DNA from: Kondoa subrosea | Lineage: Eukaryota | DNA: 64,000 nt | Assembly (NCBI GenBank): GCA_039545335.1 | Contig: BCIN01000001.1 | Location: forward strand, 736,208 to 800,207 | Direction of reading: 5' to 3' | Shown here: positions 4,853-7,800 of the stretch, in pieces | Layout of the letters: each line of letters opens with the position of its first letter | How positions within the stretch are numbered: position 1 is the stretch's first letter | Translations under genes and position numbers: made by a program | Notes under the pieces: model-generated | What the model was told of the DNA's origin: nothing | The model's database searches: none | The model's input: only the letters and a program-made list of their open reading frames with translations

Positions 4853-7800
4853 CTACCAGCGACTTTGACCCATGCCGTACGAGTTGGCACCTCCGCCGTA
4901 TCTGGAAACGAATTCACTTCAGCAACGAAACACGGCTTGAGCTGAGATGAGCTTACCCTCCTCCTCCACCTCCATATCCACCTCCGCCTCGTCCGCCTCC
5001 TCGGCCACCTCGGCCTCCACCTCTGCTAGGAAAAGTGAGCACAATACAAGAACCTTGTGAAACGAGACGAACCCATATCGGCCTCCTCTGCAAAGCAAAA
5101 CATCAGATCATGTTGCAAAAGCCAGTGAGATGTACTAACCCTCCTCCTCCGCCTCCATACGAAGACATTTGCTAATAGAGAAGTACATTGAGCGCAAAGA
5201 CAACGACGCAAAAAAGAGCACGAACTTGAAGCTCGGGAGGAACGACTTGCTTAGCCTCGTAAAGAATCTTGACAAGCTCTCGTGCAAGCTTGCTCTGTTC
5301 CATAGTGACGTAGCTAGACAGACGTCTTAGTAAACTGAACTTCAGATTACGTGTATGATGAAACTCACGCATAAGCCGTACCCTTTTTGCCAGCTCGACC
5401 AGTTCGTCCGATACGGTGAATGTAATCTTCAATACCGTTAGGCATATCATCTATAACTTAATCAGCTCGACTCCTGAGATCAAAACAGATGAAACATACA
5501 GTTGATAACGTAGCCAATGTCTTTCACGTCTGATCGGATGAAAGTAAGCATCAGAGCAAGAAGAGATGCAAAGCAATGCGGAGCGCGAGTCGGGGTGCCA
5601 AAAGGTTGCATCAAATTCTTGTCAGGATCGTCTGCCAGTTGACCCATAAAATCAAAAGCGAGTTGCACGTCGATGATGATTGCCCACAAAAGCAAGCAGG
5701 AAAAATTGGTTTGATCATTGTTTTGGTTTCAATAGCATAAGTCAAAAGCCAATGTCCTCGTATAGCGGAAAGCCAGCTTGAGATCGAACAATGCAAGGCA
5801 AATGAAAGCGGCAGCGCTTCCAAAACAAAACAAAGCTCAATCTTGGACTGGATTTTCGACGACAACGAGAGATCATGACTTCATGAATTGACAGAGCTGG
5901 CGAAGATTTCAACAAAAGACAAAAGTTTTTCCCAAATGTTTTCGTTGACAATAACCGAAATCGACGTCGGTTGTGCAATCGCGCTGTTCTTCTAGTTGGA
6001 AAATGAAATAGGTCTCAAAACTTTGACGTTACAAGCTTCCACATGGTAAAGCAAGAATGCAAAAGTGATGTTGTATTTTTGATCCAAGAATGACACAGCG
6101 AGAACGAGGTAAGTCAAGAACAAAGCACCACTCAGGGAACTGCTGATATAAGGTTCAAGACTTGTCGCTGTGTTGCTTGCAACTTGGATCGAATGACCTG
6201 TTGAATATTTCATTCCAATACAGCAATTTAGGCAGACGATTCTTGTTTGAGCAACCTGCACAGAAAACGCCCACAGGAGAGTGGCCGCGCGCCGCAATGT
6301 ATATAAAAGAATGAAAGGAATGCTTACCAAGACCTCGAGATGCAACATCTGTCGCAATCATGATCGGCGACCTGCTGGACTTGAATTCGGCAAGAACCCA
6401 ATCACGTTCTTGTTGTTGTTTGTCACCGTGAATAGCAAGAGCCGGCCAGCCGTCTTGCCGCAGGTATTTTGTGAGTTCATCGGCAACACGCTTTGTGCCA
6501 ACAAAGATGAGTACTTTGGCGTTTTCCGAAGAGATTTTTTCAAGATGCTTGACGAGTCTGAGAATCATTTTGAGCACGAGTACAAGGAGATCAGAAGAAG
6601 AATACTGACTTTCCGCGCTTTTCGAAATCAGTGCATACTTCTACAATTTGAGTGATGTTTGTGTTGGCAGTCAATTCCATTGAACCGATAGTAACTTGAA
6701 TGAAATCGCGAAGGTAATCTGAAGCGAGTCTTTGTACTTCTTTTGGCCATGTAGCTGAAAACATGAGCGTTTGACGATCTGGTCGAATTTGGTCTACAAT
6801 CTTGCGAATCTGAGGTTCGAAACCCATATCCAACATGCGATCGGCTTCGTCCATGACTAGGTAAGTAACACGACGCAGATTTGTTCGGCCGCTTTCAAGC
6901 ATATCGATAAGACGTCCAGGAGTAGCAATAACGATTTCAGATCCTCTTTGCAGATCACGAGTCTGCTGGTGCTTCGGCACACCGCCGTACACACAGGTAT
7001 TGCGAATACGAGAACTGGCGCCGAACTTTGTGCATTCCTCTTGAATCTGGACTGCAAGTTCACGAGTGGGTGCAAGAATGAGAACAATAGGACCATCTCC
7101 TGGTTTCAGAAGAGGTTGGCTGCGGGCCTAATGTCAGCATTGAGCATAAAAATTATAGACCGCAGCTTACGCATTGATGTGAATCATGGCAGGCAGAGCA
7201 AAAGCAATAGTCTTTCCTGAACCAGTCGCAGATACACCGACCAAATCACGACCGGAAAGAGCCATAGGCCAAGATTGACATTGAATAGCAGAAGGAGAAG
7301 GGAAACCAGCTTTCTTAATTTCGGCTAAGACGTAATCGGGTAGACCAGCTTCGTAAAAGGACATGATTGGCTTGGGCACATCTCGACCAAAGACACTGAT
7401 TTCCTTTTCTTTTCTGAAAGCAGCGACTTCTGCATCAGATCGTGCTTTGACAGCTTTGTCTTCAACGCTACATTGGAATGTCAGGATGTGAAAATTTGCA
7501 TAACAGGAATGAAAAACATACTAAAAGTTCTTTTCGAACTTGGATAAGGTAGCAGGGTCCCAATTCTGTTTCTTGAGCGAGTCTCCAAGACCTCCAGAAC
7601 CGTCTATTATAGGAGAAAAGCTCAGCATTGTTGAAACTTCTCACATTCTTGGATCACTTACAGCCTCCCTGTCCACCTCCGTATCCACCTCCTCCAGCGC
7701 CATATCCTCCTCCAGCGCCATAGCCGCCAGCACCGTAGCCTCCTCCGCTAATAGTAAACTATGAGTTATGCGGGAAAAAAATGCCTGGAATGAAAAGAAG

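Follow-up and report, generated by a model that had tools for sequence, protein, structure and literature searches.

A predicted multi-helix stem joins the ends of the giant intron in a DBP2/DDX5-type helicase gene of Kondoa subrosea

The DBP2 locus and its giant intron

We analyzed a 64,000-nucleotide (nt) stretch of Kondoa subrosea DNA (contig BCIN01000001.1, positions 736,208 to 800,207), referred to here as the window, whose minus strand carries an orthologue of the DBP2/DDX5-type DEAD-box RNA helicases. One intron of this gene is 798 nt long, and its two ends are complementary in a series of nested helices that are predicted to close it into a multi-helix stem. Positions are those of the window, and all helix coordinates refer to minus-strand RNA.

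Our hand-built model of the gene contains 12 introns, translates open over 538 amino acids, and includes the motifs GSGKT, PTRELA, DEAD, SAT, SRGLD, and HRIGRTGR. It shares 82.8% identity across 442 amino acids with a Rhodosporidiobolus protein named dbp2 (P0012), and its largest exon (exon 5, 169 amino acids) is 88-91% identical to named Pucciniomycotina dbp2/DDX5 proteins, with no match higher. Exon identity and helicase motifs together support the assignment to DBP2 made in an initial annotation of the window. That annotation had also contrasted the 798-nt intron with others of about 50 nt, and the remaining 11 introns of the gene indeed measure 49-58 nt each. Both ends of the encoded protein are rich in Gly and Arg: the N terminus (7760-7660, minus strand) is of low complexity with GGYG repeats, and the C terminus (5160-4880, minus strand) carries RGG/GGY repeats interrupted by four small introns.

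The giant intron begins with GU at 6327-6326 and ends with AG at 5531-5530, and its retention leads to an in-frame stop 60 codons on. The only match to GTA[AT]G[TC] within it is its own donor. The putative branch motif CUGAU, which had been placed near 5549-5553, actually lies at 5554-5550. We consider its A at 5551 the likely branch site because CTNA is present near the 3' ends of the small introns of the gene (CTGAC, CTGAT, and CTCAA twice each; CTGAG, CTGAA, CTCAC, CTCAT, and CTAAG once each).

Nested helices join the two ends of the intron

The intron was folded with ViennaRNA, alone and in a 1158-nt context including exons. Three nested helices between its ends had been described in the initial annotation, and all three were recovered by reading the minus strand and from the pair probabilities. 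Folding of the minus-strand intron in the manner of RNAfold, which had been proposed as a check, places them in the minimum free energy (MFE) structure with pair probabilities mostly >0.9 (range 0.8-1.0). H1 pairs 6296-6286 (UGCGGCGCGCG) with 5587-5577 (CGCGCUCCGCA) in two runs of 5 base pairs (bp) around one C/U mismatch and is extended by 2 bp (6299-6298 with 5574-5575). H2 joins 6257-6246 to 5615-5603 through 12 bp with one bulged U, and H3 joins 6240-6231 to 5636-5627 through 10 perfect bp, beside which two weaker pairs form (6243-6242 with 5624-5625). Two short connectors, 6268-6266/5589-5591 (pair probability 0.54-0.59) and 6261-6258/5595-5598 (0.90), lie between H1 and H2. The mean pair probabilities of H1-H3, 0.96-0.99, persist in the 1158-nt context with flanking exons.

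The earlier model, in which the ends zip together and leave a short effective intron, stands insofar as the predicted fold leaves linkers of about 28 nt on the donor side and 22 nt on the side of the branch A. It overlooked an outermost helix of 9 bp, H0. One strand of H0 is the 5' splice site (GUAAGCAUU, intron nt 1-9), and the other is nt 776-784 (GAUGCUUAC), which overlaps the branch motif and includes the branch A. The pair probabilities of H0 are 0.73-1.0 in the intron alone, and their mean with exons is 0.61, making it the least certain helix. The model is incomplete in this respect, as a helix formed by the branch region and the 5' splice site would on its own be expected to inhibit splicing. 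Altogether, the first 97 nt of the intron are joined to nt 692-784 by 53 pairs, and the longest contiguous run anywhere in the stem is 10 bp. The pairing is in register with the splice signals, with intron base 1 as its limit on one side and the branch motif on the other.

In yeast, zipper stems are delimited by a total linker of 42-85 nt and by minimum spacings of 10 nt and 20 nt (Rangan et al., PMC12350175). H1 is separated from the donor by 28 nt and from the inferred branch A by 22 nt, giving a total linker of 50 nt, and H1-H3 fall within these spacing limits. H0 breaks the spacing rule and thus lies outside a zipper stem in the sense of that study. The predicted fold also has the defining trait of a zipper stem, a link between sequence that follows the 5' splice site and sequence that precedes the branch point.

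Table 1. Positions of the helicase gene, its giant intron, and the predicted helices in the window
Feature	Positions	Strand	Remarks
DBP2/DDX5-type helicase gene	4853..7855	-	ATG 7855-7853, TAG 4855-4853; 13 exons, 538 amino acids
Intron 6, 798 nt, phase 1	5530..6327	-	splits SRGL/D after ...ATDVASRGL, VKDIGYVIN downstream; helicase motif V region
H0, 5' strand (5' splice site GUAAGCAUU)	6319..6327	-	pairs 5552-5544
H1, 5' strand (2+5+5 bp)	6286..6299	-	starts 28 nt past first intron base
Connecting helices, 5' strands (6268-6266 and 6261-6258)	6258..6268	-	pair probabilities
H2, 5' strand (7+5 bp, bulge opposite)	6246..6257	-	mean probability 0.96-0.99 in exon context
H3, 5' strand (10 bp perfect + 2 weaker pairs)	6231..6243	-	sequence read and pair probabilities
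Intron interior, 594 nt	5637..6230	-	two domains in MFE; more structured than shuffles
H3, 3' strand	5624..5636	-	sequence read and pair probabilities
H2, 3' strand	5603..5615	-	sequence read and pair probabilities
Connecting helices, 3' strands	5589..5598	-	pair probabilities
H1, 3' strand	5574..5587	-	ends 22 nt before branch A 5551
Putative branch motif CUGAU	5550..5554	-	branch A 5551, 21 nt from acceptor; inferred, not mapped
H0, 3' strand (GAUGCUUAC, overlaps branch motif)	5544..5552	-	pairs 6327-6319
3' splice site AG	5530..5531	-	sequence read

The pairing exceeds chance expectation

Compared with dinucleotide shuffles, the whole intron folds far more stably (MFE of -239.6 kcal/mol versus -198.7 +/- 7.2; z -5.65, 0 of 20 as low). 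The share of its two ends was assessed in an arms test, in which the pairing energy between the first 100 nt and the last 115 nt was taken minus the folding of each arm on its own. The arms stabilize each other by -32.4 kcal/mol, a value reached by none of 300 shuffles (-7.8 +/- 3.2 kcal/mol). Because shuffles may flatter a native sequence, we added as a control segments of 798 nt cut from the native sequence of the window on both strands; their mean was -8.4 +/- 4.5 kcal/mol, and 1 of 1152 reached -32.4. Banning all pairs that span >590 nt costs the intron 28.3 kcal/mol, compared with 2.6 +/- 2.5 in shuffles (0 of 30 as large). The H0 duplex alone amounts to -11.5 kcal/mol, which none of 200 tail shuffles reached. 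Stable folding extends to the 594-nt interior, with an MFE of -167.0 versus -141.7 +/- 5.8 kcal/mol (z -4.34, 0 of 40 shuffles).

The sole outlier among the native segments, 51575-52372 on the plus strand, has arms of -33.2 kcal/mol and spans the ends of two neighboring genes. Another segment, 24290-25087, gives -31.1 on the plus strand and -27.3 on the minus strand, suggesting a DNA-level inverted repeat at that place.

Closure of the ends recurs in orthologous introns

Metagenome contigs were scanned with the exon directly upstream of the intron, which yielded 80 loci. At 65 of these, an intron of 414-1066 nt occupies the same codon and phase (SRGL/D, phase 1), and 52 of the introns are distinct. 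The large DBP2 intron is thus conserved in position, as the initial annotation had it, and is oversized in these metagenomic relatives too. Five loci (L001, L003, L035, L063, and L075) are without an intron at the motif V position and may be transcripts, and the other 10 could not be scored. L001 is also without two neighboring small introns, so the intron-less loci may be transcript-derived contigs, not intron-less genes.

For each distinct orthologous intron, we determined the closure gain, which compares the free MFE with the MFE obtained when pairs spanning >L-200 nt are forbidden, with 10 shuffles per intron. Native segments of the same length and strand, taken from the flanks at 51 of the orthologous loci, served as a second control. 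The closure gain exceeded all 10 shuffles in 35 of the 52 introns, where about 5 would be expected. Its median was -10.75 kcal/mol in the introns (n = 52), -3.3 in the native flanks (n = 169), and -3.2 in the shuffles (n = 520); 60% of the introns and 4% of either control reached -10 (Mann-Whitney p 7e-17). Judging from these 52 other fungal introns of DBP2, the only gene whose long introns were compared, end closure seems to be general and not a single-species oddity.

The MFE folds of the orthologues contain a long-range helix of at least 5 bp in 48 of 52 cases, with a median 5' linker of 21.5 nt (interquartile range 19-40). We dropped the distance from the 5' splice site to the branch in the MFE fold as a measure, as shuffles often close their ends as well (22 introns run). 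An H0-like pairing, between 5' splice site and intron tail, was rejected as a general feature, being significant at p <= 0.05 in 2 of 52 orthologues, approximately the number expected by chance. H0-like pairing of the 5' splice site is seen in two related ascomycete-like introns, L065 (nt 1-10 with 405-415, p 0.005) and L073 (nt 1-12 with 410-423, p 0.01), where the partner lies just upstream of the branch motif and differs in sequence between the two.

Lineage-specific closing helices

An alignment of 16 agaricomycete-like introns from four subgroups (alignment A3, L017-L038) contains three internal blocks that are kept in all four, GCAAGYGCU (nt 19-29), AGYGCUUGY, and UWUUGAY, and no others. 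The first two are complementary over 9 bp and are paired in 144 of 144 cells; four of these pairs vary on one side, and a standard pair is always kept. The donor is 18-20 nt away from this helix on one side and UWUUGAY, downstream, 21-27 nt on the other, distances near the 28 and 22 nt measured in the window. UWUUGAY, if it is the branch site, would stand unusually far from the acceptor (35-88 nt).

A second alignment (A2) comprises ten ascomycete-like introns of 414-521 nt (L054, L050, L056, L065, L070, L072, L073, L074, L077, and L078), all of which begin with GUAUGA and share conserved sequence blocks. Here, RNAalifold returned nested helices that close the intron stepwise, with 91.4% of cells paired versus 34-42% when slid. 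Double-sided changes affect 14 of 41 pairs in this chosen set, compared with 5.9 +/- 1.6 in shuffles (0 of 500). The set looks like an undescribed conserved structured intron RNA without an Rfam match. In two smaller groups of 4 and 3 sequences, closing helices at nt 20-40 show one and a few compensatory changes, respectively.

The fold of whole introns as conserved nested rods in these other lineages, together with the unusually structured interior of the window's intron, would also agree with a stable processed intronic RNA, either a non-coding RNA or a hairpin substrate of RNA interference, whose ends the closing stem would mark. We regard this as highly unlikely: searches against Rfam gave no family at E <= 1 in the window between 4700 and 8000 and none at the gathering score in 16 orthologous loci, and no small nucleolar RNA-like features were seen. 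The homologous intron of human DDX5 has reportedly been found to encode a microRNA (Moore et al., 2011, via PMC4695336).

Relation to zipper stems and to known DBP2 introns

The zipper stems in long introns of Saccharomyces cerevisiae (RPS17B, RPL7A, RPL7B, and others; PMC12350175, PMC12311795) likewise pair sequence that follows the donor with sequence that precedes the branch point and so shorten the effective distance. Compared with these, the DBP2 stem is considerably longer, with about 44 pairs from H1-H3 plus connectors and those of H0 in addition. It consists of several helices, closes about 590 nt, and resides in a basidiomycete gene whose other introns measure about 50 nt. By the yeast definition, splice site and branch region stay outside the stem, whereas here they are part of the outermost helix. 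The yeast zipper stems are described as poorly conserved between species; in the agaricomycete-like DBP2 introns, by contrast, no internal element is better conserved than the helix. RPL7B provides a precedent for a zipper stem as the regulated element of a splicing feedback loop (PMC12311795); there, the effector is a ribosomal protein that stabilizes a mutually exclusive fold, whereas for DBP2 a helicase is proposed as the effector, and the analysis brought up no conserved fold alternative to the stem.

The same gene has a large, inefficiently spliced intron that lowers expression in both S. cerevisiae and Schizosaccharomyces pombe (PMC4695336). Intron 2 of S. pombe dbp2, conserved in position and length, is poorly spliced and reduces mRNA through Mmi1 and the exosome (Kilchert 2015, PMC4695336), and conservation of the DBP2 intron in position and length is stated to extend from yeasts to higher eukaryotes (PMC4695336). 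A helicase-dead dbp2 mutant of S. cerevisiae is reported to retain the DBP2 intron less (Barta and Iggo 1995, via PMC4695336), and a 2025 preprint that calls the mechanism of autoregulation "not fully understood" proposes intronic poly(A) sites (PMC12458251). In the available text, these studies place the regulation in the intron, Mmi1 sites, or poly(A) sites and describe no closing stem. We found no description of a closing stem of the DBP2 intron in the accessible portions of the DBP2-intron and fungal structured-RNA literature or in Rfam 15. The word "helicase" is not mentioned in two fungal structured-RNA screens, and DBP2 is not mentioned in the main text and 12 of the 15 supplementary files of the yeast intron-structure atlas (PMC12350175).

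These precedents raise the question of whether the stem is a default-off clamp that masks the splice signals, with unspliced RNA cleared by nuclear decay or premature 3'-end formation, as described for the DBP2 genes of both yeasts, and regulation proceeding through decay or termination instead of unwinding by Dbp2. H0 covers the 5' splice site along with the branch A with an energy beyond all 200 shuffles, splicing efficiency of the intron is reported to be low in several organisms, deletion of the S. pombe intron raises mRNA (PMC4695336), and the poly(A) sites proposed in S. cerevisiae DBP2 (PMC12458251) would offer a route to early 3' ends. We nevertheless judge this explanation improbable. 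H0-type pairing is not general among the orthologues, H0 itself is the least certain helix when exons are included, and transcription passes the 5' splice site about 770 nt ahead of its partner, by which time the site could already be occupied. Furthermore, the Mmi1 core TNAAAC is not enriched in the intron (3 versus 1.27 expected, P 0.14), and AATAAA is absent from it.

In plants, the closest homologue of DDX5 is Arabidopsis DRH1. The helicase activity of DRH1 is sensed by a conserved hairpin within one of its long introns; when the hairpin is unwound, an alternative 3' splice site is exposed and non-coding isoforms arise (bioRxiv 10.64898/2026.01.23.701338). This DEAD motif of DRH1/RH46 resembles the DBP2 stem as a structured part of a long intron in a gene of the DDX5/Dbp2 family, and it has been proposed and tested as a sensor of the protein's own activity that exerts negative feedback through splicing. 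It is a single local hairpin of 20 bp that hides an alternative 3' site, whereas the structure predicted for DBP2 is a long-range closure of the whole intron. Homology to the plant motif found no support in Rfam (no match at E <= 1 in 4700-8000), a weak test because the presence of the motif in Rfam 15 is unverified.

A zipper stem as a proposed regulatory valve

On balance, we lean toward the reading that the 798-nt intron is the ancient, position-conserved regulatory intron of DBP2/DDX5 and that its multi-helix zipper stem makes an outsized intron spliceable. The analysis establishes the complementarity, its excess over chance, its register with the splice signals, and the generality of end closure among orthologous introns; we infer that the stem forms in vivo, promotes splicing, and is rate-limiting. 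In the mechanism we propose, the first ~100 nt and the last ~110 nt would form an interrupted duplex of about 50 bp, with no helix exceeding 10 contiguous pairs, on the pre-mRNA once the 3' arm has been transcribed. The stem would shrink the 798-nt intron to a span of ~50 nt such as the spliceosome handles at the other introns of the gene, and we propose that it is therefore needed for productive splicing. Because its helices are short and its last turn lies over the splice site and branch region, splicing should be unusually sensitive to the stability of the duplex. This strong dependence on the occurrence, timing, and extent of stem formation is the likely reason that the intron could serve as a regulatory valve.

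Dbp2 is a duplex-dependent ATPase that travels with the nascent transcript. Building on the zipper stem, and without excluding it, one may ask whether Dbp2 itself operates the valve. When Dbp2 is abundant, it would melt the short helices on the nascent transcript and leave the splice sites about 770 nt apart amid introns of ~50 nt; the retained intron would bring an early stop that truncates the protein, and the transcript would be degraded, in a negative feedback. We give this extension only limited credence. The sign agrees with the relief of S. cerevisiae DBP2 retention in the helicase-dead mutant (PMC4695336), and the DRH1 hairpin is a precedent in the same helicase subfamily. The contiguous runs of at most 10 bp are within the 10-15 bp range of DEAD-box unwinding given in the DRH1 study (bioRxiv 10.64898/2026.01.23.701338). 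The Gly/Arg-rich C terminus of the protein may matter as well, as the plant RGG tail adds specificity and sensor recognition, and the feedback in yeast still awaits a full mechanism (PMC12458251). However, melting of H0 would favor splicing, so that the net sign is not obvious, and no convincing masked alternative 3' site was found (the AG at intron nt 71-72, in H2, is without an upstream CTNA). Other models also exist for yeasts, namely intronic polyadenylation (PMC12458251) and Mmi1-driven decay (PMC4695336). Dbp2 as the effector on this stem is plausible, with the right sign and a plant precedent.

A wider generalization, which we consider rather unlikely, is that end-to-end zipping is the conserved cis-element of DBP2 autoregulation across fungi. 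Under it, the intron would be spliceable only if paired, Dbp2 would melt its short helices, and plants would have arrived independently, with the DRH1 sensor, at another version of the principle.

The dosage of the central RNA helicase DBP2/DDX5 is important, and intron-dependent feedback on this gene has been known since 1995. The window provides an unusually clear structural candidate for the way in which DBP2 controls its own level. The stem, a variant of the zipper stem or structured regulatory intron, may explain the long-standing question of autoregulation, and the hypothesis is directly testable in tractable fungi.

Points that weigh against a conserved zipper stem

Several results weigh against the reading of the intron as a conserved zipper stem. 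None of the 80 loci contains an alignable relative of the 798-nt intron (blastn gave only chance-level matches, E 0.9 or worse), and the exons of these relatives are only 64-75% identical in nucleotides to the window gene. They are too distant to align, and the window's own helices therefore carry no covariation support. The initial annotation had asked for conservation of the pairings. End closure as such is general among the orthologous introns; two narrower tests were mostly negative. With fixed arms (first 100 versus last 115 nt), only 9 of 41 orthologues have z <= -2, and the window is an outlier at -8.9; this test is too rigid for helices located elsewhere. A local duplex test (nt 8-60 versus the last 150 nt) gave p <= 0.05 in 14 of 52 and p <= 0.01 in 4. 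Neither test was passed by L002 or L009, which are closest to the window in protein sequence; the two passed on closure gain only, L002 with a gain of just -5.0. In closure gain itself, 17 of 52 orthologues do not exceed their shuffles, and the 52 are phylogenetically related, so the trials and counts are not independent.

Points on this side come from the alignments as well. The 9-bp helix of the agaricomycete-like introns shows 0 double-sided changes, the ten sequences of A2 were picked from 19 after the pairing of helix 1 had been seen, and RNAalifold on the full 19 ascomycete-like introns gave no consensus structure.

Finally, the opposite strand folds nearly as well as the transcribed one (z -4.17, 0 of 25 shuffles), in keeping with helices that consist almost entirely of Watson-Crick pairs. 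The fold alone thus neither shows which strand matters nor proves an origin at the RNA level. The complementarity could be a decayed inverted repeat in the DNA, left by a foldback insertion or one resembling a miniature inverted-repeat transposable element, or a chance extreme, in either case with no function in RNA. Such an origin would sit well with nearly all pairs being Watson-Crick, with the modest difference between the strands (z -4.17 versus -5.65), with one native segment of the window that is equally extreme and another that is close on both strands, and with the fact that conservation of the exact helices could not be shown. Against it stand the registration of the pairs on the splice signals and the recurrence of closure, with unrelated sequences, in many orthologues and not in their flanks. 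Moreover, the large size of the intron is ancestral (414-1066 nt at 65 loci), and no insertion is therefore required to explain it. We give a DNA-level origin very little credence and retain the zipper stem as the favored reading.

Minor observations at the locus

The exon directly 5' of the intron contains a stretch that could pair with the intron interior (6354-6369 with 5668-5683; 16 nt, 88%). This pairing is absent from the MFE structure of the 1158-nt context, and we treated it as chance; it would be pseudoknotted with the zipper or exclude it. Two DNA contig runs at the locus, possibly the window's own source, represent one identical haplotype with zero variants or joints.

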